Shown: positions 8,812 through 61,906 of the stretch, piece by piece
How the letters are laid out: every line of letters starts with the position of its first letter
How positions within the stretch are numbered: the first letter of the stretch is position 1
NCBI GenBank assembly: GCA_947259495.1
Contig: CAMYLV010000008.1
Location: forward strand, 71,939 to 135,938
Origin: an uncultured Desulfobacterales bacterium
Lineage (GTDB): Bacteria > Desulfobacterota > Desulfobacteria > Desulfobacterales > JAHEIW01
Reading direction: 5' to 3'
DNA length: 64,000 nt
Notes under the pieces: model-generated
Told to the model about the DNA's origin: nothing
The model's input: only the letters and a program-made list of their open reading frames with translations
The model's database searches: none
Translations under genes and position numbers: made by a program

Positions 8812-8916
8812 GTTGAGCCCGTTGCCCGTTAGCCTGTTTGCCGGTTAAAAAATAAAATCAGGCATTTTTGCGATTTCAACGGGCTCAGCCGGCTCAACTG
8901 GCTAAACCGGCCAAAC
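8812..8916 (+). repeat. flavoured-hairpin element copy A (GCCCGTT / AACGGGC arms, gene-less)
   Basis: Left array GTTGAGCCCGTTGCCCGTTAGCCTGTTTGCCGGTT, core AAAAAATAAAATCAGGCATTTTTGCGATTT, right array CAACGGGCTCAGCCGGCTCAACTGGCTAAACCGGCCAAAC. It ends 7 nt before the ABC ATPase ATG. Confidence 0.75.
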
Positions 8917-8923
8917 TTAAAAA

Positions 8924-9670
8924 ATGATTGAATTAAAAGATCTCACAAAAAAATACGGCGATTTTGAAGCGGTCAATGATCTAAACCTATGCGTTAAAAA
9001 AGGAGAGGTTTTCGGATTTATCGGCCCCAACGGTGCCGGCAAGACCACCACCATTAAGATGATGGGCGGAATTTTGGAACCCACCAAAGGCACGGTATTC
9101 ATTGCCGGCATCAACATGCAGGATGCGCCCGAAAAAGCAAAAAGTAAAATTGGCTTTATTCCGGACCGGCCGTATCTTTACGAAAAACTCAGTGGCATGG
9201 AATTTTTAAAATTCACCGCTGATCTTTACGGGGTATCCGAAGATGCGTTTCAGGCAACCGCTTATGAGATCCTTAAGGATTTTTCACTGGCAGACTGGGG
9301 CGACGAGCTGATTGAATCTTATTCCCATGGTATGAAACAACGGCTGATCATGTCGGCCGCCCTATTGCACGATCCGGAGGTGATTATCGTAGATGAACCC
9401 ATGGTGGGGCTTGATCCGGCTGCGATCATAATGGTCAAAGCACTTTTTCGAAAACTTGCTGGCAAGGGTGTTACCGTCTTTATGTCGACGCATACGCTCA
9501 AAGTTGCCCAGGACACCTGCGATCGGATCGGCGTGATTAACAAAGGCCGCTTAATTGCCATTGGAACAACCGAAGAATTGCAACGGGCGGCCAATGTCAG
9601 CGAAACTGACCTCGAGCAGGTGTTTTTAAACCTGACGAACAATAATGAACGAAGTTCTGACCCTATTTAA
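8924..9670 (+). CDS. ABC transporter ATP-binding protein (ABC-2 type)
   Basis: Walker A GPNGAGKTT, signature YSHGMKQRL, Walker B IIIVDEP. Confidence 0.9.
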   Translation: MIELKDLTKKYGDFEAVNDLNLCVKKGEVFGFIGPNGAGKTTTIKMMGGILEPTKGTVFIAGINMQDAPEKAKSKIGFIPDRPYLYEKLSGMEFLKFTADLYGVSEDAFQATAYEILKDFSLADWGDELIESYSHGMKQRLIMSAALLHDPEVIIVDEPMVGLDPAAIIMVKALFRKLAGKGVTVFMSTHTLKVAQDTCDRIGVINKGRLIAIGTTEELQRAANVSETDLEQVFLNLTNNNERSSDPI

Positions 9671-11333
9671 ACCCCGCATCTGGCCGCTCAAGAACCGCGG
9701 TTTGTCAAAGGCTAATGGCAAAGGCGGCGCGCGCCTCATTTTGCTCGGCACATTCGGCCTGCTTTTCTGGTGCGGTATATTCGCCGTCTCCTGGCGGGTT
9801 TTGATTTACTTTAAGGGCATTGAGGATATCGGAGACATTCTGGGCTATAAATTATTGTCCATGATGCTGGTGGTGTCTTTTGCCCTGCTTCTATTCAGCA
9901 ACATCCTCACATCCCTTTCCAAACTCTATCTGTCCCGCGACCTTTTGCTGGTTCATTCGCTGCCGGTTTCCAGTTATAAGATTTTTATCACGCGCTGGGT
10001 CGACAGCACTATTGACAGTGCCTGGATGGTCATCATTTATACCATGCCCGTGCTCATCTCCTATGGCATCGTCTATAAAACCGGCATTTTTTACTATATC
10101 AACACCCTGATTGCGATGTTGTGCCTGGCAGCGATCGCTTCGGCCATCAGCACTCTACTGGTGATGACTGCGGTCATCTTTATCCCCGCCAGCCGAATGA
10201 AAAGTGTCTTTATTCTCATGGGGATTCTTTCTTTTGTGGTCATCTATCTGGCCATCCGCCTTTCACAGCCGGAATTGCTTGTCGACCCGGAAATTTTTGA
10301 CACCGTTATGGTCTATATTACCTCGCTGCAAACGCCGTCATCACCGTTTTTGCCGAGCAGCTGGATATATGACAGTATTCGATCCGCTCTTGCCGGTGCG
10401 ACCAGCAACAGTTTGTTTTTCACGGCGCTGTCTTTGAGTTTTGCCGGGATGATTGCATTTGTCCTGATCTTACTTGCCGATGCGATTTACTTTAAAGGCT
10501 TCTCCAAAACACAGAATGCTCCGGCCCGTTTGTTTAAAAGCAACGTCATCGGCGATCGCCTTTTTAACTTTCTGCCGGGCCCGGTAAGGTCCTTTACGGT
10601 CAAAGAAATAAAGACCTTCCTGCGCGACCAGACCCAGTGGACGCAGATCTTTCTGATTGCCGCCCTGGTGGTGATTTACGTTTATAATTTCAAGGTCCTG
10701 CCCCTTGAAAAATCGCCGATCAAAACCGTGTACCTGCAGAATCTATTCTCATTTCTTAACATGGGACTGGCGTTGTTCGTTTTGACAGCCATAACCGCCC
10801 GATTTGCCTACCCGGCGGTCAGTCTGGAAAGAGAGGCCTTCTGGCTGGTTAAAACCTCCCCGCTATCCATCCGTACGTTTTTATGGATTAAATTTTTCAT
10901 CTATTATCTTCCGCTACTCATCTTGACCGAGGTTCTGATTGCGGCAACCAACATCCTGCTGCAGGTCACGCCGTTTATGATGATCCTTTCAACCCTTACG
11001 GTTTTTTTTGTTGTCCCCGGCATCGTGGCACTGGGCATCGGCCTGGGAGCGGCCTATCCGGATTTTAAAGCCGAAAATCCGACCCAGACCATAACCAGTT
11101 TCGGCGGACTGGTCTTTATGATTGCCTGCGCCGGATACATCGGCCTGGTGGTCCTCATCGAGGCGGGTCCGGTGTACAATCTCTTTATGGCCGGCATCCG
11201 CAATAAATTTATCAGCCTGTCAGCCTGGATATGGATTATCGGCTCCTTTGGCCTGGTATTGGTTCTCAGCCTGCTGGCCATTTTTCTGCCGATGCGCTTT
11301 GGCCGGAGACGCCTGTCCCAATTGCTCATCTGA
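9645..11333 (+). CDS. polytopic membrane protein, putative ABC exporter permease partner
   Basis: 562 aa with many hydrophobic helices. It overlaps the ATPase gene end by 26 nt. Confidence 0.7.
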   Translation: MNEVLTLFKPRIWPLKNRGLSKANGKGGARLILLGTFGLLFWCGIFAVSWRVLIYFKGIEDIGDILGYKLLSMMLVVSFALLLFSNILTSLSKLYLSRDLLLVHSLPVSSYKIFITRWVDSTIDSAWMVIIYTMPVLISYGIVYKTGIFYYINTLIAMLCLAAIASAISTLLVMTAVIFIPASRMKSVFILMGILSFVVIYLAIRLSQPELLVDPEIFDTVMVYITSLQTPSSPFLPSSWIYDSIRSALAGATSNSLFFTALSLSFAGMIAFVLILLADAIYFKGFSKTQNAPARLFKSNVIGDRLFNFLPGPVRSFTVKEIKTFLRDQTQWTQIFLIAALVVIYVYNFKVLPLEKSPIKTVYLQNLFSFLNMGLALFVLTAITARFAYPAVSLEREAFWLVKTSPLSIRTFLWIKFFIYYLPLLILTEVLIAATNILLQVTPFMMILSTLTVFFVVPGIVALGIGLGAAYPDFKAENPTQTITSFGGLVFMIACAGYIGLVVLIEAGPVYNLFMAGIRNKFISLSAWIWIIGSFGLVLVLSLLAIFLPMRFGRRRLSQLLI

Positions 11334-11374
11334 CCCCCTGCAAGCCTGCAAAGTCCCATCTTCAAATTTTCATC

Positions 11375-11403
11375 TTGACAGCCATAATGTATACGTTTAT
11401 ATT
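11375..11403 (+). promoter_or_regulatory. candidate sigma70 promoter for the 4HB-remnant/lexA transcription unit
   Basis: TTGACA (11375-11380), a 17-nt spacer, then TATATT (11398-11403). The spacer contains the near-palindrome AATGTATACGTT. Confidence 0.5.
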
Positions 11404-11422
11404 TACATTAATATTTACATTA
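11399..11422 (+). promoter_or_regulatory. exact tandem 12-mer ATATTTACATTA x2 overlapping the -10/+1 region (possible operator)
   Basis: Read directly: ATATTTACATTAATATTTACATTA immediately at and after the -10 hexamer. Confidence 0.35.
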
Positions 11423-11428
11423 TTCTCT

Positions 11429-11708
11429 GGTTTACCGTTCAAAGGTTCGGGGTTCAAAGATTAAAGACAAATCTGAACCGTTGCTTCGAAGATCCGAGGA
11501 GAAAAGGATGAAAATCGAACAATTTGACGACATTGAAGCCTGGCAATTGACCCGGAAGCTCACTCGCAAGGTCTATGAATTGACAAAAAAGCCCAAATTT
11601 GATCGCGACTTCGGCTTGAAGAGGCAAATTCAGGAGGCCGCCGGTTCATCCATGCACAATATTGCGGTAACCCTGAACGGTGAACCCTGAACCCTTGAAC
11701 CTGAAACC
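11429..11708 (+). repeat. flavoured-hairpin element copy B (GGTTCA / TGAACC arms) carrying an internally deleted four-helix-bundle gene
   Basis: Left array GGTTTACCGTTCAAAGGTTCGGGGTTCAAAG. Right array GTAACCCTGAACGGTGAACCCTGAACCCTTGAACCTGAAACC, whose first 27 nt are identical to the right arm of copy C. Confidence 0.8.
11508..11690 (+). pseudogene. truncated four-helix-bundle protein gene (23S rRNA IVS protein family), N-terminal 53 codons only
   Basis: MKIEQFDDIEAWQLTRKLTRKVYELTKKPKFDRDFGLKRQIQEAAGSSMHNIA, then the frame reads straight into the right repeat arm. By eye there are 15 mismatches over 160 nt versus 13339-13498. The roughly 210 bp present in copy C between ATTGCGG and TAACCC are absent. 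Confidence 0.8.
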
Positions 11709-11724
11709 GACGAAAGGAGGTTTC

Positions 11725-12357
11725 ATGAAAGTCCCGCTGACAGCCAAACAGCAGCGTGTTCTGGATTATCTTCAGCGCGAAATCGCCAAAACCGGTCTGT
11801 GCCCCAGCCTGCGCCAGGCTGCAGCGAATCTGGGGGTCAGCCATGCCGCTATCGCCCAGATCCTTCGTGTGCTGGAAGAAAAAGGCTATGTTAAGCGCGA
11901 GGGGCGTTACAGCCGCAACGTTTATTTGTTAAATCGCACGCGCCAGGCAGCGGCTTTGCAGCGCTGGCGCGAAATCCCGATTATCGGTCGTGTCACGGCC
12001 GGTCTACCGATGTACGCCCAGACGGAGTGGGACGGCAGCATCGTGCTGGATGCCGCCGTTTATCGCAGTCAAAACATCTTCGCCCTGCGCGTCAAGGGCG
12101 ATTCGATGAGAGATGCCGGCATCCTCAACGGCGACCTGGCGATCTGCGAACCGCGTCAGTACGCCCAAAATGGGGAAATCGTCGTGGTTCTCATTAACAG
12201 TGAAGAGGCCACTGTCAAACGCTTCTTTTTACGTGACGACCACATCGAGCTGCGTCCGGAAAATACCGACTACGCCCCCATGCGTTACGGCTTCGGCGAA
12301 GTGCTGGTTCAGGGCAAGATCATCGGCATCCACCGCGGCCCGGAAGAAATAAATTGA
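11725..12357 (+). CDS. lexA: LexA repressor (S24 peptidase)
   Basis: wHTH N-terminus (LTAKQQRVLDYLQREIAKTGLCPSLRQAA), catalytic GDSM and VKRF Lys motif. AAAGGAGG SD 5 nt upstream of the ATG at 11725. The track ORF start at 11680 lies inside the repeat arm. Confidence 0.9.
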   Translation: MKVPLTAKQQRVLDYLQREIAKTGLCPSLRQAAANLGVSHAAIAQILRVLEEKGYVKREGRYSRNVYLLNRTRQAAALQRWREIPIIGRVTAGLPMYAQTEWDGSIVLDAAVYRSQNIFALRVKGDSMRDAGILNGDLAICEPRQYAQNGEIVVVLINSEEATVKRFFLRDDHIELRPENTDYAPMRYGFGEVLVQGKIIGIHRGPEEIN

Positions 12358-12468
12358 GCACGCTGCGCATTTGAGGAGCGGTCCTCGGAACCTTTAGGAA
12401 CGCTCCTTCAGCCGGGCATGATGGCATTGCGCAAGCGTTAGCAGCATCCCTTGGCGTAGAAAACGAAA

Positions 12469-13293
12469 ATGCAAACCGAGCAAACAAAAAGCCCCTGCCG
12501 CCTGTGGGTCGGCACCAGCGGTTATTCGTATACAGAGTGGGTCAACGCCGGGTTTTACCCGCCGGGCACCCGATCGGGCCAGATGCTGCCGCTTTACGCC
12601 CGAACCTTTCCGATCACCGAACTGAACTTCACCTGGTATCAGATGCCGAAAGCCGCTGCCATCGAACGCATGCGCCGGCAGGCACCGCCCGGTTTTCGTT
12701 TTGCCGCCAAACTGACCCGCACCTTAACCCATGAGGTGGACCCCGACCAATGGCGGGGGCAGGCCTCTCAATACCGCGACGGCATGGCACCGCTGGTCCA
12801 GGCCCGGCAGCTGACAGCTGTTTTGCTGCAGTTTCCGCCGAGCTTTTCCCGGGCGCCGCAAAATCGCCGCTACCTGGCCGCCCTTCTGGACGAACTGGCC
12901 GGATTGCCCCTGGCGGTGGAATTTCGCCATGCCTCATGGGCCGCGGACCGGGTTTTTGCCGAACTGGAGCGCCGCCGCACCACCTTGGTGGCCGTGGATG
13001 AACCGGCTTTACCGGGCCTGTTTCCGCGACTCGATTTGGTCACCAATCCGGAGCTTTTCTATATTCGGTTTCACGGCCGCAACGCCAGAGGCTGGCGCTC
13101 GGGCAATATGCAAATGCAGTTCGACTACGACTACCGTGATGAAGAGCTGCGGGAATGGGCTGATAAAATCATCACACCGATGACCCGACAGGCCGGCAGC
13201 GGGACAATTTTTTTCAACAACCACGTCCGCGGCCAGGCACCCAAAAATGCCCGGCGTTTGATCAGCCAGTTAATTGAAGGAGGTCTTCTCTAG
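12469..13293 (+). CDS. DUF72 (YecE-like) family protein
   Basis: WVGTSGYSYTEWVNAGFYPPG N-terminus, FRFAAKL, AVLLQFPPSF and AVEFRHASW are typical DUF72 blocks. Confidence 0.85.
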   Translation: MQTEQTKSPCRLWVGTSGYSYTEWVNAGFYPPGTRSGQMLPLYARTFPITELNFTWYQMPKAAAIERMRRQAPPGFRFAAKLTRTLTHEVDPDQWRGQASQYRDGMAPLVQARQLTAVLLQFPPSFSRAPQNRRYLAALLDELAGLPLAVEFRHASWAADRVFAELERRRTTLVAVDEPALPGLFPRLDLVTNPELFYIRFHGRNARGWRSGNMQMQFDYDYRDEELREWADKIITPMTRQAGSGTIFFNNHVRGQAPKNARRLISQLIEGGLL

Positions 13294-13745
13294 GTTCAGA
13301 GGTTCCGGGTTCTGGGTTCAAAGGTTCTGAGGAAAAAAATGAAAATCGAACGATTTGAAGACATTGAGGCCTGGCAATTGGCCCGGGAGTTAACACGCAA
13401 GGTCTATGAATTGACAAAAAAGCCCCGGTTTGCGGGCGACTTCGGCTTGAAGAGACAAATTCAGGAGGCCGCCGGTTCATCCATGCACAATATTGCGGAA
13501 GGATTCGATTCGGAGACAAACCCGGAATTTATTCGTTTTCTTCGATATGCCAAGCGGTCTTGCACTGAAGTCCAGAGTGAGCTTTACGTGGCACTGGATC
13601 AGCAATACATAACAACTCAAGAGTTTCAGAATGTGTACGACCATGCCGGGCGTACCCGTGCTGCCATTCGAGGTTTCATTAAGTACTTGCTAGCTTATGA
13701 GCAAGGTAACCCTGAACGGTGAACCCTGAACCTATGAACCCTTAT
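13293..13745 (+). repeat. flavoured-hairpin element copy C (GGTTCA / TGAACC arms) with an intact four-helix-bundle gene; the reference full-length copy
   Basis: Left array GGTTCAGAGGTTCCGGGTTCTGGGTTCAAAGGTTCTGAGG (13293-13332). Right array GTAACCCTGAACGGTGAACCCTGAACCTATGAACCC (13706 onward). Together they bracket ORF 13339-13722. Confidence 0.85.
13339..13722 (+). CDS. four-helix-bundle protein (23S rRNA intervening-sequence protein family, PF05635/TIGR02436-like; Avd-like fold)
   Basis: 127 aa with FEDIEAWQLARELTRKVYELT...GLKRQIQEAAGSSMHNIAEGF...EFIRFLRYAKRSCTEVQSELYVALDQQYIT, the hallmark pattern of this family. Confidence 0.85.
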   Translation: MKIERFEDIEAWQLARELTRKVYELTKKPRFAGDFGLKRQIQEAAGSSMHNIAEGFDSETNPEFIRFLRYAKRSCTEVQSELYVALDQQYITTQEFQNVYDHAGRTRAAIRGFIKYLLAYEQGNPER

Positions 13746-14915
13746 AACCGTTCAATTATCCATTTAAACGTGGCTGATTTTGCCGTGGCGGTGGAAAGGG
13801 CGGTGGATCACCGGCTGCACGAACGTCCGGTGATCATCGCACCCGAAGGCGCCGTACGCGCCGCCGTTTATGACATGAGCAACGAGGCCTATATAACCGG
13901 CATCCGCAAGGGCATGGCCCTGCAGCGAGCCGTTCGCCTGTGTCAAGATGTCCGCATCCTGCCGCCCCACCCCCACCGCTACGAACAGGCCATGCGCGAT
14001 GTGCTCAAGCGCGCCCTGCCGTATTCACCCCTGATCGAAACCGGTGAAGACGACGGCCACCTGTTTATGGATGCCACCGGCACCGGCCGCCTTTTCGGGC
14101 CGCCCAGGGATGTGGCCTGGCGGTTGCGCCGGCAGATCAAAACCGACCTGGGCCTGGACCCGATCTGGTCGGTGGCACCCAACAAATTGGTGGCCAAAGT
14201 GGCCACCCGCCTGGTGAAACCCGATGGAGCGTACATCGTCTCGGCCGGCGAAGAAAGATCGCTGCTGGCCCCGCTGCCTGTCCGCCTGGTTCCAGGCATC
14301 GAGCGCGATGACCTGCTTCGGTTGCGGGAATTCAATTTGACGCATGCATTTCAGGTCGCGGCCCTGAGCCTGGAGCAGTTGGCGGTCCCTTTTGCCACCC
14401 GTGCCCGGCTGCTTTACGAGGCGGTGCGCGGCATCGATCCGTCTCCGGTTTTGCCGGTCGGGCAGAAACCGCCGCAGGTGATCGCCGATCACGAATTCGG
14501 CATCGACACCAACGATGTGCACACCCTGGAGAGCGTTCTCTACGGGCTGGTGGAGCAGGTTGGCAGCCGGCTGCGCCGACGCCGGCGAGTTGCCCGCCGC
14601 ATTGCCATTGTGCTCGACTATTCCGACGGCATGCGCCGCGCCCGCCAGGTGGCCGCCCGGCCGGCCACGGCCAATGACCTCACCCTCTTTGAACTGGCCC
14701 GGCGCGCACTGCAACTGGCCTGGATGCGGCGGGTGCGTATCCGCCACCTGCGCCTGATCGGCGCCCGGCTGGTCTTTCCGCCGGCCCAGTTAGAACTGTT
14801 TGCCGCCGATCAGAAAGCCGATGAAAAGCGATCCAGCCTGATCGGCGCCATCGACACCGTGCGCCACCGCTTCGGCCATGAGGCCTTGCGGTTCGGCCGC
14901 ACTTTAGCGGCCTAA
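13719..14915 (+). CDS. imuB: ImuB-like Y-family DNA polymerase homologue (catalytically inactive type)
   Basis: IIHLNVADFAVAVE aligns with the DinB motif IIHVDMDCFFAAVE, but both Asp residues are replaced. The SLDE position reads DDGH. Both candidate ATGs (13719, 13734) lie inside the right arm of element C, and the gene sits upstream of dnaE2. Confidence 0.8.
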   Translation: MNPEPMNPYNRSIIHLNVADFAVAVERAVDHRLHERPVIIAPEGAVRAAVYDMSNEAYITGIRKGMALQRAVRLCQDVRILPPHPHRYEQAMRDVLKRALPYSPLIETGEDDGHLFMDATGTGRLFGPPRDVAWRLRRQIKTDLGLDPIWSVAPNKLVAKVATRLVKPDGAYIVSAGEERSLLAPLPVRLVPGIERDDLLRLREFNLTHAFQVAALSLEQLAVPFATRARLLYEAVRGIDPSPVLPVGQKPPQVIADHEFGIDTNDVHTLESVLYGLVEQVGSRLRRRRRVARRIAIVLDYSDGMRRARQVAARPATANDLTLFELARRALQLAWMRRVRIRHLRLIGARLVFPPAQLELFAADQKADEKRSSLIGAIDTVRHRFGHEALRFGRTLAA

Positions 14916-14916
14916 C

Positions 14917-15212
14917 TGCCGGTTTGCCCGTTGCCGGTTTAGCCCGTTGGCCGGTTGATAATTGAACGAATAACCATCAGAACAAACTGTTGAACAAACG
15001 AATTTATTCGATTTTTAACATATTCGCGACGCTCTTGTTCTGAGGTACAAAATTGCCTGTATATTGCTTTGGACCAGAAGGACATCTCCCCAGAAGCGTT
15101 TCAAAGTACTTATGACCACTGTGCAAGGATCAGGAAAATAATTGATGGCCTAATCCGTTACTTGAAAAACCATCAACCCGGCTAACGGGCCAACGGGCTC
15201 AACCGGCTCAAC
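14917..15212 (+). repeat. flavoured-hairpin element copy D (GCCSGTT / AACSGGC arms) with a 5'-truncated four-helix-bundle gene fragment
   Basis: Left array CTGCCGGTTTGCCCGTTGCCGGTTTAGCCCGTTGGCCGGTTG starts 2 nt after the imuB stop. Right array CAACCCGGCTAACGGGCCAACGGGCTCAACCGGCTCAAC ends 6 nt before the dnaE2 ATG. Confidence 0.8.
14997..15185 (+). pseudogene. four-helix-bundle protein gene fragment (C-terminal half only)
   Basis: Hand translation NEFIRFLTYSRRSCSEVQNCLYIALDQKDISPEAFQSTYDHCARIRKIIDGLIRYLKNHQPG* aligns with residues ~62-124 of the 13339-13722 protein (roughly 60% identical by eye). An in-frame TGA lies just upstream and there is no start codon. Confidence 0.75.
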
Positions 15213-15218
15213 TTTGTT

Positions 15219-18200
15219 ATGATCCCATTAACCGTCCGATCCAACTACTCTTTCATGTGGGGCACAGCTTCGGTCAAACAGGTCTGCCGGGCAGCCCGAC
15301 GTCTGGGCTATACGCACCTGGCGCTGACCGACACCGACAACCTGTGCGGCCTGTGGCCCTTTTTAACCAGCTGTCGGCGCGAAGGACTGACACCCATTGT
15401 GGGGGCGGAGATCACCGACCCGCAGCGCAAGCAGCGGGCCGTCTGCCTAGTGGCCAATGATTCCGGCTACCGCAACCTCTGCCGCCTGTTGACCCGCCGC
15501 CACATGGACGATGATTTTAGTTTGGCGGCCGCTGTAAGCGCCCATGCAAATGGATTGGTGGTCCTTACCCAGAGCGCGGGCCTGCTCAGCGCCTGGCATG
15601 CTGACGGCGTTGCAGTTGCCGGCGCCCTGCCGCGTCGTCCTTTGCCCGCCACCCACCGACTGCGCCACACGGCCCGCCGCCTGGGCGTGTCGGTGGTAGC
15701 CACGCCAGGCAGTTTCTTTTTGCGTCCCGCAGACATGGCGGTGCATCGCATTTTGCGCGCCATCGCGCACAACACATCCCTGTCACGCCTGGCAGCCGAC
15801 GAAGTTGCCCCGGTAGATGCATGGCTGGCAGGCCCTCAAGAATATGAACGCCGCTTTGCCATCTGCCCGGAGGCAATCAGCGTCACTTACAAAATAGCCG
15901 AACGTCTGGATTTTAGCGGCCCGCAATTTGGCATTGTCATGCCGCCGCTGCTCGGTCAAAACGGCAGCAACCCGGCCGAGCGCCTGCGCGAGCAAGCTTA
16001 TGAAGGTGCGCGGCAGCGCTACGGCGATGAGCTTTCCGAGGCCGTGGTGGAGCGGCTGGAACACGAATTGCGCAGCATCACAGACATGGGATTTGCCGCA
16101 TATTTTTTAATCGTGCGCGGCATCATCCAGCGCAGCCCGCGCACCTGCGGCCGCGGCTCGGGCGCCGCTTCGCTGGTGGCTTACTGCCTGGGCATTACCA
16201 ATGTCTGTCCCCTGAAGCACAATTTGTATTTTGAGCGGTTCTTAAACCCGGGCCGCCAAGATCCGCCCGACATCGATGTGGATTTTGCCTGGGATGAACG
16301 CGATGCGGTCCTGGATTCGGTCCTGACCCAGTATCCGGGTCACGCCGCTATGGTGTCCAGCCACGTGCTGTTTCAACCGCGCATGGCGGTGCGCGAAGTG
16401 GCCAAGGTCTTCGGGCTGACCGATGCCGAAATCGGCCGGGTGTCCAAGCGGCTGCCCCAATTCTGGCGCGTGAAAGAATCCGACCCTCGATTTTTGGACG
16501 AACTACAGCAGCGTCCCGAATCCAAAGCGCTGGCGTTTCCCCCGCCCTGGCCCGACATTTTGCAGTTTGCCCAGCGCCTGATCGGCACCCCGCGCTATAT
16601 GTCGGTGCACCCCGGCGGCGTGGTGATCACGCCGCGGCCTATTGAAGAATACGTCCCTGTCGAGCGCGCCCCCAAAGGCGTGCCGATTATCCAGTGGGAA
16701 AAGGATGCCACCGAAGATGCCGGGCTGGTCAAAATTGATTTGCTGGGCAACCGCAGCCTGGGGGTCATTCGTGACGCCCTGGTCAACCTGCGCGACAACG
16801 GCACCGCCTTCGACGAGCTGCGCTGGGAACCCGAAGACGACTTTGCCACCCAGGAGGCTCTGGCCCAGGGTCGCACCATGGGCTGTTTTTATATCGAAAG
16901 CCCGGCCATGCGCCTGCTGCAGCAAAAGTCCAAAGTGGGCGATTTCGAACACCTGGTCATTCACAGCAGCATTATCCGCCCGGCTGCCAACGAATTTATC
17001 CAGGAATACATCCGCCGGCTGCACGGCGGCCGCTGGGACCCGATTCATCCTTTTTTGGCCGAAGTGCTCGCTGAAACCTTCGGCATCATGGTTTATCAGG
17101 AAGATGTCTCCCGCGCGGCAGTGGTTATCGCTGGCTTTTCGCATGCCGAAGCCGATACGCTGCGCAAAGTGCTGACCAAAAAGGATCGCGCGCATCAGCT
17201 GCGGGATTTTGAGCAACGCTTTTACACCGGCGCACGGCAGCACGGCGTATCCGCTGACAAAACCGCTGAAATCTGGGATATGATGATGAGCTTTAACGGC
17301 TATTCCTTCTGCAAACCCCACAGTGCTTCTTATGCCCGGGTATCCTTTCAGGCCGCCTATCTCAAGGTCCATTATCCGGCCGAATTTATGGCTGCGGTGA
17401 TCAGCAACCAGGGCGGCTTTTACGGCACCTTTGCCTACGTGTCCGAGGCCCGGCGCATGGGTCTGAAGGTGCTGCCGCCCAATGTCAGCTTAAGTGAGGT
17501 TCACTGGACCGGCGGGGCCGATACCATCCGGGTGGGGCTGCTGTCCGTCAAGGGCCTGGGCATCGACACCCGGGCGCGCATCGTTGCGCAGCGTCGCCGC
17601 CGGTCCTACGGTAGTCTGCGGGATTTTTTGGACCGCGTGCGCCCCGCGGAAGACGAGGCCCGCTCATTGATCAACTGCGGCGCCCTGGATGCCTTCAACT
17701 CCGGCGGCAACCGCGCAGCGCTGCGGTGGGAACTGGCCGGCTGGTTGAAATCAAAACGGCCGAAAGTGCCCAACCCCGCCCTGTTTGATGGTGCCAACCC
17801 TGGCGCCGATTGCCCGCCGCCGGCACTGCCCGCCGAAGATGAACGCGAACGACGGCGGCGTGAGTTTACGGTGCTGGACTTTCTGTGCGATCGTCACCCC
17901 ATGGAGCTGTTTGCCGGACAGTTGCAAAAACGACGCACCGTTAAAGCCGTGGACCTGCCGTGCTTTGTCGGCCGGCGGGTCACTCTGGCCGGCTGGCTGA
18001 TTACCGGCAAGGTGGTTTCCACCAAAAAGGGCGATCCCATGGAGTTTTTAACCTTTGAAGATGAAACCGGTATTGTAGAGACTACCTTTTTCCCGCAAGC
18101 CTACCGCCGTTTTTGCCACATCATCGATCGCCAGCGGCCCTATCTGCTTACCGGCAGGGTCGAAGCGGACTGGGGCGCGCTGACCCTTACAGTCGAAAAG

Positions 18201-23039: not shown

Positions 23040-23051
23040 CTATGAACCTCT

Positions 23052-33130: not shown

Positions 33131-33871
33131 TCATATCGCACCGCCCGAATCCCCGGCGTGGTAACGCATCGTCAGCGGGCGGGTCCTAAACTTCGGAACC
33201 AGCGAAACCACCATCCCGGCAAAAGCGCCAAACGGACAACGTTGAATGATTTTGGATTGCTCCAGACCGGCGGCAATTTTCCCCGATTGGGACGGCAACT
33301 GACATACGGTCCGCCAGGATACGGGTGTATGGCCGACGATTTTGCGAATTCGCTGTTTCAGTTCCCAGACACTGAAAAATTGCGCATGGTTAAAAATTGT
33401 CGCGGTAAACATGCCTTTTACGCGTCGCTGGACCCCTTTGATGGCATAACGGTTCAATACGCCGATAAAGATTCGATCTTTGGCGACCCGACAGGCCTCC
33501 TCCAGCGTTTTTTGGGGGTTATCGACAAATTCCAGAGTCGTAAATAAGCAGACGTAATTAAAAGAATTATCATCAAAGGGCAGGTCCTCGGCATAGCCCC
33601 GATAAAGATCGGCACGGTTGCCGATATTGCGCGATGCAATATCCAGCATGTATGTCGAGGGATCCAGGCCGGTCACCTGCAAGCCCATGTCCAGAAAAGC
33701 ATGCAGGCATGCACCGGTCCCGCACCCGATATCCAGTACCGATTCGCCCCGCATGGGCTTGAGCAATGTTTGCATCAGCCGGATTTCCAGTTCGAAAGCG
33801 GCTTTGCTTTCGGGCTTTTTCAGCCACCGCTCGTAGGCGATGGCATCTTTAAAATCGAATACACGGCCCAT
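33131..33871 (-). CDS. class I SAM-dependent methyltransferase (Methyltransf_11-like)
   Basis: VLDIGCGTGACLHAFLDMGLQVTGLDPS motif I. ATG 33871 is preferred over the TTG at 33907. Confidence 0.8.
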   Translation of the reverse strand: MGRVFDFKDAIAYERWLKKPESKAAFELEIRLMQTLLKPMRGESVLDIGCGTGACLHAFLDMGLQVTGLDPSTYMLDIASRNIGNRADLYRGYAEDLPFDDNSFNYVCLFTTLEFVDNPQKTLEEACRVAKDRIFIGVLNRYAIKGVQRRVKGMFTATIFNHAQFFSVWELKQRIRKIVGHTPVSWRTVCQLPSQSGKIAAGLEQSKIIQRCPFGAFAGMVVSLVPKFRTRPLTMRYHAGDSGGAI

Positions 33872-33971
33872 AGCAGATAATTTAAGTAATAAGTCGGATT
33901 TTAGCAAGGAAGAAAACCGCGGCTTGTTCTTCAGACTTTAACCCAGGAATAGCAGGGGCGCAGGCAGCGAT

Positions 33972-34076
33972 TTATAGGGGTTGTCAAAAAAACGTTACGG
34001 TATACAAACGTTTTTTTGACAACCCCTTATGCCGTACTTCCGTATTCCGGAACATTATTATGAAAAACGGTATAAC
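33972..34076. repeat. GTTGTCAAAAAAACGTT-family palindromic repeat, copy K1 (hairpin plus conserved tail)
   Basis: Perfect 20-bp stem GGGGTTGTCAAAAAAACGTT (33977-33996) / AACGTTTTTTTGACAACCCC (34007-34026), then the tail TTATGCCGTACTTCCGTATTCCGGAACATTATTATGAAAAACGGTATAAC, which is shared with 61711-61816. Confidence 0.8.
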
Positions 34077-35706: not shown

Positions 35707-35769
35707 CCGGCTGCTGGTCTCTGGCCAACGGCCCGCGGCTGCTTGCCGCTCGCTGCCGGCCACTGGCTC
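35707..35769. repeat. solo tandem heptamer array (9 units, CTGGCYN flavour)
   Basis: CCGGCTG CTGGTCT CTGGCCA ACGGCCC GCGGCTG CTTGCCG CTCGCTG CCGGCCA CTGGCTC. Period 7; no inverted partner seen nearby. Confidence 0.6.
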
Positions 35770-35895
35770 AGATAGGTTTGAGGTGTTCCGCCGATTTAAA
35801 CTTAGGGACAGGATAATTCTACTGTTTGAATTAAGTTGCGCTGTATGCTAACAGAAGACGCGCTCGTTTCGCTTACGCCATATTGGAATAATACA

Positions 35896-37125: not shown

Positions 37126-37167
37126 CCTGATTCGGAATTGAATACAGGCTTCAGGTGATATTTACCT

Positions 37168-37302
37168 GGTTCAAAGGTTCAGCGTTCAAAGGTTGTGAGG
37201 TTAGATTACAGACGACAGCTGTCAGAGATAAAATGAAACCGGACCGAATCACTGACGCTGAGCCCCAGAACTCCTGAACCTTGAACCTCTTAACCCTTAA
37301 CC
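37168..37302 (+). repeat. flavoured-hairpin element copy E (GGTTCA / TGAACC arms, gene-less)
   Basis: Left GGTTCAAAGGTTCAGCGTTCAAAGGTTGTGAGGTT. Core ...CAGAGATAAAATGAAACCGGACCG.... Right GAACTCCTGAACCTTGAACCTCTTAACCCTTAACC. Confidence 0.8.
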
Positions 37303-37325
37303 ATCGTCATTTACAGGAAACCGTT

Positions 37326-39254: not shown

Positions 39255-39290
39255 CTAATTCCAGAAACGGGTAATATAAAGTCACGAAAA

Positions 39291-39372
39291 CCAGGCATGG
39301 GGCATGGCGTCCAAAATAGACAGCTTTCAGTTTCATATTTTAACACCATGCTCCCTGCTCCATGCCCTTTGC
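39291..39372 (-). repeat. flavoured-hairpin element copy F (GCATGG / CCATGC arms, gene-less, inverted orientation)
   Basis: CCAGGCATGGGGCATGGCGTCC ... CACCATGCTCCCTGCTCCATGCCCTTTG. The reverse-complement core reads TTAAAATATGAAACTGAAAG. Confidence 0.7.
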
Positions 39373-40274: not shown

Positions 40275-40280
40275 GATCTT

Positions 40281-40588
40281 GCTACTGGCCACTGGCCACT
40301 GGCGGTCGCAAGGAACTGCCCTACGCTCCGGTTTCATCTGTCATCAGTCTTCTGTGATCTAACCTCTGAACCTGCAAAACCACTCAAAGCCCTGCCAGAT
40401 TAGGCCGGAAAACGACAACTCAGTGCCCCAGGAAGACAACTCAGGCCGCAGGGCAGAAAGCAATCGTCTGTGTAAGTTGCATACCATTATTGAGCACCCG
40501 GCAGGGCGTATCGACAAGCTAACGGCCAACAGCCAGTAACCCGTAGCCAGGTTCAAGACGCCTGTAGCGAGAAGCCGGTAGCCAGTAA
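40281..40588. repeat. composite repeat region G (ACTGGCC / GCCAGT arms enclosing an inverted GGTTCA-type half element)
   Basis: Left GCTACTGGCCACTGGCCACTGGCGG. Right ...CAGCCAGTAACCCGTAGCCAGG...GCCGGTAGCCAGTAAA. The reverse complement of 40326-40376 (GGTTCAGAGGTTAGATCACAGAAGACTGATGACAGATGAAACCGGAGCG) parallels the core of copy E. Confidence 0.65.
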
Positions 40589-40647
40589 ATACAGTTGTGC
40601 TGATTCGATCTGAATGATACAAAACAGCGCTTTCGGTGAAATGATTC

Positions 40648-43148: not shown

Positions 43149-43523
43149 ATGTTTGAACTAAAAGTCGTAACGCGTTTTGCAGCTGCTCATCAGCTGACGA
43201 TGGTTGGATCAAAATGTGAAAATATGCACGGTCACAACTGGAAAGTCGAGGTCTATGTCACTGGAGAAAAGCTTGGTGCCGGCGGCGTGCTGGTGGATTT
43301 TGGGGCGATCAAGGCCCATCTGGCCGATGTAATCAAAAAATTGGATCACAAATTTTTAAACGAGCTCGATTATATCCCTGACGGAAAACCGTCATCGGAA
43401 AACATCGCCTATTTTGTGGCCACAGAGCTGCAGACCAAAATCGACGATTCAGCAGTCCAAGTTAGCCGGGTCACGGCCTGGGAATCCGACGACGCATGTG
43501 CAACTTATATCGTAAAAAGATGA
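43149..43523 (+). CDS. queD: 6-carboxy-5,6,7,8-tetrahydropterin synthase
   Basis: FAAAHQL...HGHNWKVEV and ESDDACATY, the PTPS/QueD pattern. ATG 43149. Confidence 0.8.
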   Translation: MFELKVVTRFAAAHQLTMVGSKCENMHGHNWKVEVYVTGEKLGAGGVLVDFGAIKAHLADVIKKLDHKFLNELDYIPDGKPSSENIAYFVATELQTKIDDSAVQVSRVTAWESDDACATYIVKR

Positions 43524-43612
43524 CAGGGAACAGAGATCAGAAGACAGATGCTAAGATTGAAAGATGGCGCACCTTATCTGACTTCTGTTTTCCGTCTTCT
43601 GTCATCTCTTTT
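43524..43612 (+). repeat. hairpin element H (CAGAAGAC / GTCTTCTG flavour) between convergent queD and pyrE
   Basis: ACAGAGATCAGAAGACAG ... CCGTCTTCTGTCATCTCT can pair. The left part resembles the AGATCACAGAAGAC...ACAGATG core of copies E/G. It probably also acts as a bidirectional terminator. Confidence 0.5.
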
Positions 43613-44165
43613 CTGAAAGATACCGCTTCATCAGTTCGTCCCGAGTTATAATACCGGAAACATTCGGCACGTGCCGCCGAATGTTATCAAGCCCCCCTTC
43701 CTGTCGATCAACAAAAATCACGGCCTTAATAACTTCCAACCCCTCGGCGCGGGCCCGTTCAATGGCCTTGATGGTGGAGCTACCGGTCGTGGCCACATCA
43801 TCGATAATAGCCACCCGCTCACCCGGCTGGATATCGCCTTCAATCCAGCGAATCATTCCGTGATCCTTGCGTGTCTTTCGAATGGAAAAAGCATTGATCG
43901 GCCTGGCCTTTAACTCGGAGGTAAAGGCCGTGGCGACTGCCAGCGGATCGGCACCAAAAGTCAAGCCGCCGACTGCGGTCACATCGTCGTCTTTGATCGA
44001 CTCAAATAACAGGTGCCCCGCCAGGTACATGCCACGAGCGCAGAGGGTGGCCGGTTTACAATTGACGTAAAACTGACTCATCCGGCCCGACACCAGTTTA
44101 TAGATCGGCTCTTTGCTGAATTTGAAGGACTTCTGACACAACATGTCGATTAATTCTGCTTTCAT
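43602..44165 (-). CDS. pyrE: orotate phosphoribosyltransferase (short type)
   Basis: [24 protein letters not shown], and the PRPP loop [16 protein letters not shown] 44165. Confidence 0.8.
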
Positions 44166-54316: not shown

Positions 54317-54356
54317 CCCGCCAAAGGACCTACCTGCAAACCGCCCAATCAGCCCT

Positions 54357-55031: not shown

Positions 55032-55439
55032 TTTATTCCTCCTGCAGATCCGCTTTCAGCCTTTTCACATTAGCCCGACCCTGTCAAAAACACGCTCAAT
55101 GATTGTTTGTAACAAGGGTATTCGGTTTGATTGTGGAGCGGAAAGGTACCGCAAGCCATAAAGTTTATCAGTGCCCGGATGATAAAATCATTATGTTATT
55201 ACAGTATATTATCTCAGAAAGACCGTCCAAAGTCAAGAATCGGCCGAAGTATTCACAATTACAGGACGTTATCGAAATGCCAGAGATGTTGATTACAATT
55301 CATCCCGGGTCTGATATATTATATATTAGCTGTTGCGGAGAAAAATTAAGGACTAAAGACGGATTTGATTGACTCCGTATGCTTGGCTTTATATGATAAA
55401 AGTCCGAATGAGCGCTAAGCTGTCAGGGCTTAACGAGAT

Positions 55440-57737: not shown

Positions 57738-57790
57738 TATACAACATCAATTCTTTACTCGGTTCTTGGCAGTTCACCAACATAATCTTT

Positions 57791-57898
57791 CCGGTTTATC
57801 CCGTGCTCACAGGTTAGCCCGTTTGCCGGTCGACGATAAGAGATCAGATAATTTTTTTTAACGGGCTAACGGGCTCAGCGGGTTCAACGGGCCAACCG
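57791..57898 (-). repeat. flavoured-hairpin element copy I (GCCCGTT / AACGGGC arms, gene-less, inverted orientation)
   Basis: Plus strand: CCGGTTTATCCCGTGCTCACAGGTTAGCCCGTTTGCCGGTC ... TAACGGGCTAACGGGCTCAGCGGGTTCAACGGGCCAACCG. The reverse complement gives array, then AAAAAAAATTATC, then inverted array. Confidence 0.75.
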
Positions 57899-57915
57899 AA
57901 TTCAGAGGTGAATGT

Positions 57916-60334: not shown

Positions 60335-60561
60335 AACCGGTTTGCCTGTTGAGCTCGTTGCCCCGTTGCGGCCGTTAAAAAAATCAAAGGAATTTGTTGC
60401 CAGGCGGCTGGGATGCCTAAAGGCTTGAAAACCTTGAAGGTTTGGCCTCGTTTGACTTTCTATTATTCGGACTTTCTGGCCTCCTGGCCTTATAGCCTCC
60501 CAGCTTTTGACAAGGTAACGTATCAACCGGCAAACGGGCCAAACGGATTAACCGGTCAACC
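60335..60561 (+). repeat. flavoured-hairpin element copy J (GCC.GTT / AAC.GGC arms) with likely residues of a four-helix-bundle gene
   Basis: Left AACCGGTTTGCCTGTTGAGCTCGTTGCCCCGTTGCGGCCGTT followed by AAAAAAATCAAAGG. The interior encodes ...LKTLKVW... and ends AGCTTTTGACAAGGTAAC (compare AGCTTATGAGCAAGGTAAC at the end of the intact gene). Right CAACCGGCAAACGGGCCAAACGGATTAACCGGTCAACC. Confidence 0.7.
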
Positions 60562-61692
60562 TTCCTTTAGCAGCTGCACGACATCAAACTCCCCGTCTTC
60601 GTATATAAACCGCTTGGATCTATCAGGCTGGCAGCGATCAAAGGCGATGATAACCGTTTTTTCAAGCCAGCTTAAAAAGCGCGCTGTCGCCCGACGCGAC
60701 AAAACACACTTTAGCCAGGTAAACGCTCCGCCCAGGCGGGTAATGCGCTGCTGTTTATCGAAAGCCGGCAGGCCTGCTTTTTGGGTTGCCCGCCAGTAAT
60801 AGACGTAGGTGGTTATAATCAACAGCATCGCTGCTCCCCGGGCCCGTGAAATCTGGCCAGCCGGCAGGGTGTTAAAAAATTGGGGAAACTCACGAAACCG
60901 GCGAATGGCTCGCAGAATCAGTTGGCCGCGCACTTCCCGGATACACTGCTCGCGACGGGCACCTTCCAAGCCGGGCAGCTGCGGATGGTAAAAAACGCCG
61001 CGCACGTAATCTTTTTCAAGGTCACGCGTGACGTTAGCCAATTGTATCACTTCACCCACAACCGCGCACAAACGTAGTCGGGCATCACCGATTTGCGGCG
61101 AGAGCCCTTGATCCAGCCGCTGCATTTCATCAGCAAAAAGGATCGAAGTGCCGAGCACATGCCAGCAGTAGCGGGAAAGCTGCCCCGGTGTTTGCAGGAC
61201 GCCGCCTTGTTCGGTTAAAACGCGACTGGCCCAGATCATGCCTGCACCCATGCGCCGGACAAGCCGGCGAATGGCCGCCTGCTGGGAGCCCTTCAGGCGA
61301 TCAAAATTATCATCGATAAGGACTGCGCGGTTCACCAACAGTACATGCGTGCTCTCCTGTGGATCATCGGTCAGGGCCGGGTCAAGGGCTGGAGCCGGCT
61401 TTAAATCGTCGGGGTCATCGAACCGCTCGATAAAGCGTTTTAAGGCCGATTCCTTTTCTTGCAGCGTGGGCAAAAGATCTTCGTAAGTGTCCAGCATGCG
61501 GCAGTACAGGTAAGCAACCGCCAGGGCGCGCCGTAAGCGCGGCGGAAGAAATACGATCACAAAGGAAAATGTGCGCGCCGCATGCGGCAGAATCTGCCAC
61601 AAAAACTGTTCGGGATCATTGATCGCGCTCAGTTTGGCCAGCGGGGGCTTTCTGCGGTTTGACAATAAATTGACAAAAATGGGACCCAGCAA
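60556..61692 (-). CDS. squalene/phytoene synthase family protein (head-to-head prenyl transferase fold)
   Basis: AVAYLYCRMLDTYED (first Asp-rich motif) and a second acidic region near NVTRDLEKD. 378 aa. Confidence 0.6.
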   Translation of the reverse strand: MLGPIFVNLLSNRRKPPLAKLSAINDPEQFLWQILPHAARTFSFVIVFLPPRLRRALAVAYLYCRMLDTYEDLLPTLQEKESALKRFIERFDDPDDLKPAPALDPALTDDPQESTHVLLVNRAVLIDDNFDRLKGSQQAAIRRLVRRMGAGMIWASRVLTEQGGVLQTPGQLSRYCWHVLGTSILFADEMQRLDQGLSPQIGDARLRLCAVVGEVIQLANVTRDLEKDYVRGVFYHPQLPGLEGARREQCIREVRGQLILRAIRRFREFPQFFNTLPAGQISRARGAAMLLIITTYVYYWRATQKAGLPAFDKQQRITRLGGAFTWLKCVLSRRATARFLSWLEKTVIIAFDRCQPDRSKRFIYEDGEFDVVQLLKEG

Positions 61693-61710
61693 TGCGACCT
61701 CTTTGGTTGG

Positions 61711-61816
61711 TTATAGTGGTTGTCAAAAAAACGTTCTGTTAATCCAACGCTTTTTTTCCAACCACTTATACCCCAGTTTCGTAGTTCGGAACATTATTAA
61801 GAAAAGCGGTATAAAT
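61711..61816. repeat. GTTGTCAAAAAAACGTT-family palindromic repeat, copy K2
   Basis: TTATAGTGGTTGTCAAAAAAACGTT...AACGCTTTTTTTCCAACCACTTATACCCCAGTTTCGTAGTTCGGAACATTATTAAGAAAAGCGGTATAAA is colinear with 33972-34076. Confidence 0.75.
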
Positions 61817-61840
61817 CGACTATAGAAGAATCTTTAATCT

Positions 61841-61906
61841 CGAAAACACGAAAAACAAAAGAAAAAAATTGTATTTTTAAATTTTCGTGATTTCGTGGTT
61901 TTGTGG
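61841..61906 (+). repeat. flavoured-hairpin element copy L (CACGAAA / TTTCGTG arms, gene-less)
   Basis: CGAAAACACGAAAAACAAAAG, then AAAAAAATTGTATTTTTAAA, then TTTTCGTGATTTCGTGGTTTTGTGG. Confidence 0.7.

Follow-up and report, generated by a model that had tools for sequence, protein, structure and literature searches.

Paired inverted tandem arrays in an uncultured Desulfobacterales genome as probable ends and relics of small promoter-less foldback cassettes

In a 64 kb stretch of DNA from an uncultured Desulfobacterales bacterium (contig CAMYLV010000008.1; hereafter the window), arrays of tandem 7-9-nt units lie between protein-coding genes and are followed by the same units inverted. A preliminary description had recorded these loci as a dispersed family of hairpins whose unit sequence, here called the flavour, differs between copies while the arms stay complementary, and it had overlooked the genes between some of the arms. 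The loci, named elements A to L, are very probably the ends and relics of small cassettes. The complete element, of ~420-730 nt, consists of a left array, a ribosome-binding site, an open reading frame (ORF) of ~125 amino acids and an inverted right array. The left array typically has 4-5 tandem units of 7-9 nt, and up to more than 20. The cargo ORF usually encodes a four-helix-bundle (4HB) protein of the 23S-rRNA-intervening-sequence/Avd family, and in other lineages a GxxExxY protein (PD-(D/E)XK-like).

Elements B, C and D are all located within the operon lexA-DUF72-imuB-dnaE2. Element C (13292..13742, plus strand) is intact. Its left array, five GGTTCA units at 13292-13332, begins on the TAG stop codon of the DUF72 gene, the 4HB ORF follows at 13339-13722, and the TGAACC-type right array at 13708-13742 provides the final codons of the ORF and its stop. 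The product is a 23S_rRNA_IVP/4HB protein (PF05635, E 1.4e-28; TIGR02436, E 3.7e-27). When element C was compared with cassettes of unrelated genomes, the BLAST homology ran from 13289-13294 to 13739-13749, which are the outer edges of the arrays. In both the minimum free energy and the centroid fold, 13291-13320 pairs with 13712-13742 and the long-range stem is kept.

Element B (11429..11705, plus strand) is a cassette of the GGTTCA flavour in what is probably the 5' leader of lexA, with a left array at 11429-11461, a conserved leader, an ORF at 11508-11690 and a right array at 11665-11705. Its 4HB gene is 3'-truncated, the first 53 amino acids being intact and then fused into the right array, and it is still recognised as a family member (PF05635, E 1.6e-9; TIGR02436, E 2.6e-8) with 80% identity to the intact copy in element C (tblastn). 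Element D (14917..15212, plus strand), between imuB and dnaE2, has the flavour GCCGGTT // AACCGGC, with a left array at 14917-14956, a relic of a 4HB subfamily 2 gene at 15000-15185 and a right array at 15173-15212. This gene is 5'-truncated: only its C-terminal half is left, 83% identical to residues 63-120 of the intact gene at the equivalent junction of L139 (L-numbers denote comparison loci from other sequences, mostly metagenome assemblies). The arms of element D form a 24-nt inverted repeat (I4) that is 92% complementary.

Some other features of this region were recorded. The sequence 5' of element B (11375-11425) contains a TTGACA...TATATT promoter-like stretch and a tandem ATATTTACATTA x2; L001, L004 and L088 also conserve the TTTACAT repeats. 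Here may lie the promoter of lexA with its SOS operator, which would place element B in the 5' leader of that gene. When ORFs are called mechanically, those of lexA and imuB begin inside the right arrays (11680-11724 and 13719-13751), giving the artificial N-termini MNPEPLNLKP... and MNPEPMNPYN.... The G+C content is 57-61% at 12000-18000, around this operon, and 45-54% in the remaining window.

Cassettes of the same build are widespread. A database search with the element C protein found more than 5,800 close relatives, of which the top 120 are 83-95% identical. A scan of one genome per species returned 522 4HB relatives, and the 79 loci that were kept (64-93% identity) belong to Desulfobacterota and to no fewer than a dozen further phyla, including Verrucomicrobiota, Acidobacteriota, Nitrospirales, Chloroflexota, Planctomycetota, Elusimicrobia, Fibrobacteria and Spirochaetota. 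In nearly all of the 79, GGTTCA-type units lie just 5' of the start codon and TGAACC-type units over or just after the stop codon. From outer array to outer array the elements have a median length of 499 nt (range 422-730 nt). They start at or just past the upstream stop codon, the cargo ORF ends within the right array, and in 60 of 66 loci the 4HB gene points the same way as the gene upstream of it. The arms match better within a locus than between loci: a locus's own left and right flanks have 9.7 inverted 7-mers in common, compared with 5.1 between loci (0/2000 permutations), and the duplex energy in 65 cassettes was -58.1 kcal/mol with the cassette's own partner arm, -52.2 with the partner of another locus and -40.6 with a shuffled partner.

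The flavour of an element goes together with its cargo gene. GGTTCA travels with 4HB subfamily 1, in which covarying variants also occur, namely GTTCTT//AAGAAC (L073, L075), CCCAGTT//AACTGGG (L030) and GTTCACA//TGTGAAC (L054, L055). GCCGGTT travels with subfamily 2, and arrays of the element D type enclose intact versions of that gene in L119, L114, L137 and L139. CGCAGAG or CACAGAG is found with GxxExxY (L080, L083, L084, L087, L092, L117, L130, L122, L129, L048); one such gene (TIGR04256) is enclosed by CACAGAG//CTCTGTG arrays, and the flanks of most of the 12 GxxExxY loci have inverted 7-mers in common. A further flavour, TAAAGTGCC//GGCACTTTA, encloses a distant 4HB gene. Finished plasmids of named isolates carry elements that are built alike: Nostoc sp. 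ATCC 53789 and Nostoc edaphicum (GGGAAAA//TTTTCCC and GGGAGTA//TACTCCC in Nostoc), Calothrix brevissima (GGGTGTA//TACACCC) and Riemerella anatipestifer (GGTTYAA//TTRAACC). No conserved rRNA motif was present in the window or in any of the 164 loci.

Many cassettes have, in addition, a short terminal inverted repeat outside the arrays, either GTAACTACTCAGG ... CCTGAGTAGTTAC or GTAACCGTTCAC ... GTGAACGCYTAC, which makes the extreme ends GTAAC...GTTAC; examples among L001-L079 are L031, L032, L038 and L046, and L005, L013, L018 and L022. Element C is without such a repeat. Array pairs at L010 2615-3055 and 4110-4569 and at L032 6515-6973 have 300-400-nt cores with no recognisable gene, which hold a widespread non-coding repeat with the spurious translations '...CHSGGSRNPV...' and '...LDSGFRRNDG...'.

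Arrays were detected by Tandem Repeats Finder, an inverted-repeat search and our own detector of 6-mers recurring at 7-9-nt spacing, both in the window and in a wider census of 1.03 Mb (the window plus related loci). Twelve arrays with four or more units are present in the window, where ~0.2 are expected; 11 of them lie in elements A to L, and arrays of 7-9-nt units were found at every locus of the preliminary description. In the census there were 318 such arrays compared with 3 in shuffled sequence, and 164 inverted array pairs compared with none. The spacing of the pairs is bimodal, with gene-less pairs below 150 nt and gene-holding ones at 300-500 nt. At least 7 flavours are present in the window alone and dozens across the census. 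Left arrays are matched by inverted right arrays of the same flavour, as had been reported, and this correlation held under permutation, since 35 of the 143 non-GGTTCA arrays had an inverted matching neighbour where 2.15 were expected (maximum 12 in 200 permutations). This supports the earlier proposal of a true dispersed family whose arms stay complementary while the unit sequences differ.

The pairing of the arms was assessed by their duplex energy against a dinucleotide-shuffled partner (z-scores, 300 shuffles). Eight of the 13 arm pairs clearly beat the shuffled controls (B -4.0, C -2.9, D -5.5, E -3.0, G outer -3.2, H -3.5, I -3.0, J outer -3.0), and for each of these at most 1/300 shuffles equalled the real duplex; three were moderate (F -2.2, J inner -2.45, A -1.7) and two weak (L -1.6, K -0.7). 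Whole-element RNA folds were also better than dinucleotide shuffles, with z of -2.6 to -3.5 at five compact loci (8808-8920, 37160-37306, 39285-39372, 43512-43618 and 57785-57900). The interval 40278-40390, which had been taken as the hairpin of element G, folded no better than its shuffles (z -0.31).

The remaining elements of the window, A and E to L, are gene-less and span 64-310 nt. Element A (8812..8917; GCCCGTT // AACGGGC; fold z -3.45) is flanked by a transglutaminase-like gene and by one for an ABC ATPase, and has a left array at 8812-8846, an A-rich core of 33 nt and a right array at 8880-8917; its orthologous copy in L004 has the identical flavour and an unrelated core. Element I (57791..57899; fold z -2.62) is of the same flavour, between a 7TM-HD gene and the gene for pyruvate:ferredoxin oxidoreductase alpha. 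Element J (60335..60562) has an outer pair of GCCNGTT (60335-60371) // AACCGGC-type units (60524-60562), and a nested pair of a different flavour in its loop (~60387-60410 // 60474-60503; CCAGGCGGCTGGGA // GGCCTCCTGGCC). Element H (43514..43615), CAGAAGAC // GTCTTCTG, is situated between the convergent genes PTPS (plus) and phosphoribosyltransferase (minus), and corresponds to an inverted repeat (I1) with 36-nt arms that are 78% complementary (fold z -3.14). Element F (39291..39367) is a short GCATGG // CCATGC hairpin of 2-3 units per arm between a moeA-PBP gene and bacA (fold z -2.80).

Elements E and G are composite. Element E (37168..37304; GGTTCA // TGAACC; fold z -3.47) is located between two moeA-type genes, and its core has CAGAAGA-type units followed by AAACCGGA...; this core can be aligned to L088 374-464 as well as to element G in reverse complement. 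In element G (40281..40590), the outer ACTGGCC array (40281-40304) is paired with GCCAGT-type units at ~40524-40590, farther away than the right arm first assigned to it, and the pair encloses a reversed fragment of the element E composite, including a repetitive extragenic palindromic (REP)-like GTAGGGCAG piece. The composite repeat is common to 40305-40383 (minus orientation), 37205-37263 and L088 374-464 upstream of lexA, in the order GGTTAGAT, CAGAAGA units, AAACCGGAGC, GTAGGGCAG (REP-like) and GCCAG units. The loop of element G also holds a 21-nt tandem repeat, GACAACTCAGGCCCCAGGAA x1.9, at 40414-40452.

Elements K and L are the least convincing. Element K (35707..35770), the weakest member, lies in the divergent region between a DEAD-box helicase gene (minus) and moeA (plus). 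It had been taken for a solo array, yet it folds by itself as a compact CTGGYC-type hairpin with a tiny loop (-37.6 kcal/mol, z -1.74), and its flavour recurs in paired form between imuB and dnaE2 in L101, L082 and L107. Element L (61836..61915), an A/T-rich CACGAAA // TTTCGTG hairpin (inverted repeat I3) upstream of a squalene-synthase-like gene (minus), is weak when taken alone (fold z -1.24); its flavour is paired in L074, as is a related CGAAA type in many relatives.

Another palindrome, with 21-nt arms, occurs twice, at 33976-34027 (AGGGGTTGTCAAAAAAACGTT ... AACGTTTTTTTGACAACCCCT, 100% complementary) and 61715-61766 (AGTGGTTGTCAAAAAAACGTT ..., 86%), each just 5' of a minus-strand gene (methyltransferase, 33131-33907; squalene-synthase-like, 60556-61692); this palindrome looks like a shared operator or terminator. 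An A/T skew at 30-32 kb is explained by a hydrophobic TRAP-permease-like membrane protein on the minus strand. A tRNA scan of the window found none, and tblastn found no relics of GxxExxY in it.

With the cassettes recognised, several details of the preliminary description are changed. Four of the right arms lie farther off than had been stated (11665-11705, 13708-13742, 15173-15212 and 60524-60562), as does that of element G. The A-rich tract continuing as ATGAAA, regarded as a shared core, is at elements B and C the ribosome-binding site and start codon of the cargo gene. Likewise, the cores do not form one alignable family: the likeness of B and C in AAAAATGAAAATCG is due to the ribosome-binding site and start of paralogous 4HB genes, and that of E and the reverse complement of G in ATGAAACCGGA is due to the shared composite repeat, which is present in L088 too. 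The remaining cores were no more similar to cassette interiors than shuffled sequence was.

The occupants of the lexA operon junctions differ between close relatives. An ImuB metagenome scan gave 80 relatives (64-98% identity), all with the order lexA-DUF72-imuB-dnaE2, in which imuB and dnaE2 are 0-833 nt apart and DUF72 and imuB 12-723 nt apart. In the most divergent relatives these sites are empty and the genes overlap or abut, while others contain intact, truncated or gene-less elements of at least 6 flavours. The occupants include intact 4HB subfamily 2 elements with GCCGGTT arrays; GxxExxY elements with CGCAGAG arrays that are intact, truncated (L129) or gene-less (L125, L144); hairpins of the CGAAA type; CTGGC hairpins in which REP-like hairpins or a RAYT (REP-associated tyrosine transposase) gene are nested; and a type with an 18-nt period. 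L081 (ImuB 98% identical) is like the window, while L080 (97%) has a GxxExxY cassette where the window has its 4HB relic. The orthologous contigs L001 and L004 have different occupants at equivalent junctions, with CACAGAC//GTCTGTG or CATTGGTT//AACCAAT upstream of lexA and CGAAA//TTTCG at imuB-dnaE2. A filled and empty pair is also found: the two genes at 9640-9650 of the window overlap, and L004 1203-1383 carries a GCCCGTT hairpin there.

At the imuB|dnaE2 gap of L110 and L111 (L110 3652-4465), a gene for a RAYT-type HUH tyrosine transposase was found with GTAGGGTCGGCC...GGGCTGCCCTAC REP doublets on either side. This unit is nested in the loop of a CTGGYC // GCCAG pair, which also holds an inner CGATAC-type pair. 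The loops of such hairpins seem to be preferred landing sites.

The arms and the loops evolve differently. Among 10 orthologous gene-less CGAAA hairpins, copies compared in pairs are 90.5% identical across the arms and 71.5% across the loop, and in the adjacent imuB gene, used as a yardstick, codon positions 1, 2 and 3 are 88%, 93% and 69.3% identical. The arms thus behave like replacement sites and the loops like silent sites; therefore, on this comparison of sequences, the arms are either constrained in place or homogenised by gene conversion. The compensatory covariation that had been claimed was not seen, with 0 double substitutions in the 35 predicted pairs of these 10 copies, because the arms are nearly invariant. 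Together with the cargo-linked flavours, this excludes flavour differences as compensatory mutations within one lineage. Flavour is a marker of element lineage, each lineage with its own cargo gene, and therefore covariation alone cannot separate selection on a hairpin from co-inheritance, gene conversion or a word-reading protein. Of the earlier claim of selection on a hairpin, the constraint on the arms and not the loops is retained and the argument from covariation is not.

We consider it probable, as a whole explanation, that the loci belong to one class of small, promoter-less, horizontally spreading foldback cassettes and their decay products. The elements live between ordinary operon genes, mostly in the sense orientation, and usually extend from the upstream stop codon to just before the downstream start. 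We infer that the cargo gene erodes by internal deletion, leaving the gene-less hairpins that make up most loci of the preliminary description, because gene-less and gene-holding copies share flavours and sites and truncated intermediates exist. As to how an insertion within an operon could be tolerated, read-through from the host operon would transcribe the element, and the two arrays could pair in the transcript to form a regularly interrupted stem of 30-40 bp around precisely the cargo ORF. With the insert insulated or excised by such a stem, the upstream stop and the downstream start of the host would stay close together. The proposal is made because the architecture of the Coxiella 23S rRNA intervening sequence matches, and as an argument from analogy it is tentative, with a somewhat better chance of being wrong than right.

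Several observations weigh against this explanation. The search for cargo-gene residue in the gene-less cores gave scores like those of shuffled cores. The scanned ORFs adjoining the elements revealed no transposase or other mobility machinery, and a test for target-site duplications found none: in 48 cassettes the longest word shared by a cassette's own flanks was 3.71 nt compared with 3.50 +/- 0.14 when permuted, although the array edges are fuzzy and a duplication of 2-3 bp would escape this test. The role at the RNA level depends on the analogy with the 23S rRNA intervening sequence, the stems are broken every 6-7 bp, and such interrupted stems may be poor substrates for RNase III. Sense and antisense arm duplexes did not differ significantly (-58.1 and -59.8 kcal/mol, a weak comparison since both strands have a G/T-rich 5' arm), and therefore an RNA strand is not singled out over DNA hairpins. 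The absence of compensatory changes in the orthologous copies counts here as well. One Nostoc copy is antisense to its neighbours, and in the Pseudanabaena galeata plasmid pPg_01 (L164 46268-46627) the 4HB gene, between cas6 and cas4, has direct arrays, a long (AAAAGCT)n upstream and (AAAAGCC)n downstream, as the sole clear exception to arm complementarity. Finally, the comparison sequences come largely from metagenome assemblies; even so, many independent assemblies show the pattern, as do the finished isolate plasmids.

Another explanation is that the arrays are iterated binding sites in which the repeated word and not the hairpin matters, the protein being a nucleoid or global regulator (IHF/HU, as for Geobacter, where regulator binding was proposed by Aklujkar et al.) or the product of the cargo gene, such as an Avd-like 4HB pentamer that would read 4-5 units on single-stranded RNA or DNA. 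Five chains are deposited for 2GSC, the nearest relative with a solved structure, and the 4HB family is homologous to Avd, the cofactor of diversity-generating retroelements (PMC10053308), and therefore a protein-recognition model stays alive. The tandem units, typically in 4-5 copies, the almost invariant arms without compensatory changes in orthologous gene-less copies, the direct arrays of the Pseudanabaena cassette and the joint switching of flavour and cargo subfamily would all fit it. However, the number of flavours would call for many specific proteins, arms are conserved in gene-less copies with no cargo protein encoded nearby, the unrelated 4HB and GxxExxY families have an identical arm architecture, the inverted layout is near-universal with pairing far above shuffled, and a period varying from 7 to 9 nt is out of phase with the B-DNA helix. 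On balance, we regard this explanation as unlikely. We find it less probable still that the elements are REP/REPIN-like miniature elements moved in trans on DNA hairpins by an HUH tyrosine transposase (RAYT or TIRYT), with 4HB and GxxExxY genes as passengers. A hairpin doublet with several sequence families per genome is REPIN-like, many cassettes end in GTAAC...GTTAC or GTAACCGTTCAC...GTGAACGCYTAC, REP-like GTAG hairpins are nested in L082, L094, L107, L118 and element G, and a RAYT gene with GTAGGG...CCCTAC REPs lies inside the CTGGYC-flavour loop of L110 and L111. That RAYT, though, comes with different REPs of its own and sits in the loop as a guest apart from the element, and no RAYT or relic of one was found in the window (tblastn). 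Moreover, the window arrays are without a GTAG/CGTC tag, their arms are tandem and not palindromes of 20-40 bp, and flavour tracks the cargo gene, which is unexpected for a passenger.

An origin as intercistronic RNA hairpins evolved by the host (terminators, attenuators or stabilisers of mRNA), formed by slippage in place and with genes captured later, would account for the intergenic location, for elements H and J between convergent genes and for the conservation of the arms in place, and hairpins of REPs and of MITEs (miniature transposable elements with inverted repeats) are known to stabilise upstream mRNA (PMC3733652). This is quite improbable, as the arrays and cargo move jointly between phyla and their homology ends sharply, the operons of outgroups are empty and their genes overlap, near-identical strains have different flavours at one junction, and most copies lie inside operons, where termination would be harmful. 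Ordinary low-complexity microsatellites with inverted neighbours by chance are hardly credible at all. Slippage can create short-period arrays, and elements K and L alone are indistinguishable from shuffled controls; the shuffle census and the flavour permutation nevertheless refute this reading, and it is also contradicted by the conserved association with cargo genes and by there being only one of the 12 window arrays outside the elements.

If they are foldback cassettes, the elements give a concrete and testable context to the large 4HB family, whose function is unknown, and account for at least some of the short intergenic tandem-repeat arrays that have been catalogued for decades unexplained. 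Junctions of conserved operons, such as this SOS mutagenesis operon, are hot spots of cassette gain, replacement and erosion, with turnover on the timescale of strain divergence. In practical terms, gene callers extend adjoining ORFs into the arrays (e.g. 'MNPEPLNLKP...'), so annotated neighbours are likely to be over-extended; the arrays are likely to hamper assembly, and flavours could act as strain markers. If the arms do insulate inserts in operons, they would be a natural design for polarity-free insertion. A wider reading, which we put forward as speculation that is unlikely to be right as a whole, is a pan-bacterial superfamily of foldback cassettes joining the PF05635/TIGR02436 and GxxExxY genes, the heptamer-octamer arrays of cyanobacteria (short tandemly repeated repetitive, STRR, type), of Beggiatoaceae and of Bacteroidota, and the paired sites of Geobacter. 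In it, an oligomeric Avd-like cargo protein would read the arm units, or the nuclease-like GxxExxY would cut them, and the arms would be both a copying handle (RNA- or hairpin-DNA-mediated) and a device for harmless residence in operons or rRNA. If true, this would be a mobility system without any known transposase.

Among known systems, the cassettes closely resemble in architecture the 23S rRNA intervening sequences of Leptospira and Coxiella burnetii (PMC4990558). These measure ~430-750 nt, have a PF05635 cargo, terminal inverted repeats by which the ORF comes to lie inside a single long stem, and no promoter of their own, and are distributed sporadically and horizontally; that of Coxiella is 428 nt long with an S23p (4HB) ORF and a 28-bp terminal stem cut by RNase III (PMC4990558). 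The 4HB protein is present at 13339-13722, and as relics at 11508-11690 and 15000-15185, and is lacking from the gene-less copies; an ORF-enclosing stem is seen in the folds of element C and in the duplex energies of the 65 cassettes. Intervening sequences are located in helix 9, 25 or 45 of 23S rRNA, whereas the cassettes lie between protein-coding genes and an Rfam scan of the window gave no match. The cassette arms are made of tandem 7-9-nt units in many flavours, and RNase III cleavage, demonstrated for the intervening sequence, is here only presumed.

Paired arrays have also been catalogued before. In Geobacter metallireducens, Aklujkar et al. (2009; PMC2700814) listed 24, 21 and 8 inverted array pairs in classes 1-3, with 3-5 tandem units of 7-9 nt (GTTGCTYN, TCTCCGTS[Y], MTYCTGA), suggested binding of IHF/HU, and noted insertion sequences (IS110, IS481) between or beside the pairs. 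Those sites, labelled there as putative binding sites of global regulators, are, descriptively, the same kind of object as the window elements, being intergenic (e.g. nifD|nifK, proB|proA) opposite-strand pairs at variable distance in several classes per genome. The window elements have such paired units with a different consensus, and the Geobacter report gives no cargo gene, decay series or cross-phylum spread; its supplements do not mention 'S23', 'intervening' or 'helix bundle'. Given the Geobacter pairs and the intervening-sequence architecture of a 4HB ORF between inverted repeats, the earlier view of the class as undescribed goes too far.

The earlier view that the elements are not REPs, bacterial interspersed mosaic elements, CRISPR arrays or classical MITEs agrees with our comparisons. 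REPs, REPINs and REPtrons (RAYT) are also intergenic hairpin doublets in several families that spread within a genome and are often transcribed (PMC3116915, PMC3733652). Unlike the untagged tandem arrays with 4HB or GxxExxY genes, however, REPs are short GTAG/CGTC-tagged palindromes with a dedicated HUH transposase; no tag stands at the foot of a 20-40-bp imperfect palindrome in the window, where GTAGGGCAG occurs only in the nested piece of element G, and no cognate RAYT was found, the one in L110/L111 being flanked by its own GTAG REPs. The gene-less copies are like MITEs in being small (64-310 nt) and non-coding, with terminal inverted repeats, near genes, and they resemble deletion derivatives. 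They differ in that target-site duplications were looked for and not found, the inverted repeats are themselves built of repeats and vary by lineage, and the full-length elements encode 4HB or GxxExxY proteins and no recognised transposase. CRISPR repeats are 24-48 nt long and separated by spacers, whereas the units here are 7-9 nt, head to tail and without spacers. Like integron cassettes, the elements are small promoter-less sense ORFs behind a host promoter, with putative recombination sites conserved in structure and not in sequence; in integrons, however, attC is wholly 3' of the ORF and has R/L boxes, whereas here the arms flank the ORF with no attI and no cassette array, and the scanned ORFs that adjoin the elements included no integrase.

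The eukaryotic Foldback (FB) transposons have long terminal inverted repeats made of tandem short sub-repeats in variable number, and most copies are non-coding, with few having a central gene. They are much larger and have unrelated proteins, so the analogy is one of architecture only. Cyanobacterial STRR heptamer arrays were reportedly described by Mazel et al. in 1990, and the Nostoc and Calothrix 4HB genes seen here are flanked by heptamer arrays. TAACTGA heptamer direct repeats are known from Beggiatoaceae, Cyanobacteria and Bacteroidetes (MacGregor 2015, PMC4679880), mostly unpaired, with 169 direct sets compared with 1 inverted, just 5' of start codons. Both kinds are, like our arrays, intergenic and gene-oriented tandem heptamers in 2-6 or more copies with suspected horizontal spread, but those reports give no link to a cargo gene. 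No published link of 4HB or GxxExxY genes to flanking repeat arrays was found in the open-access literature. Judged by sequence, then, the elements would be intervening-sequence-like, foldback and MITE-like in kind; paired arrays have been known since 2009, and their link to cargo genes appears to be new.

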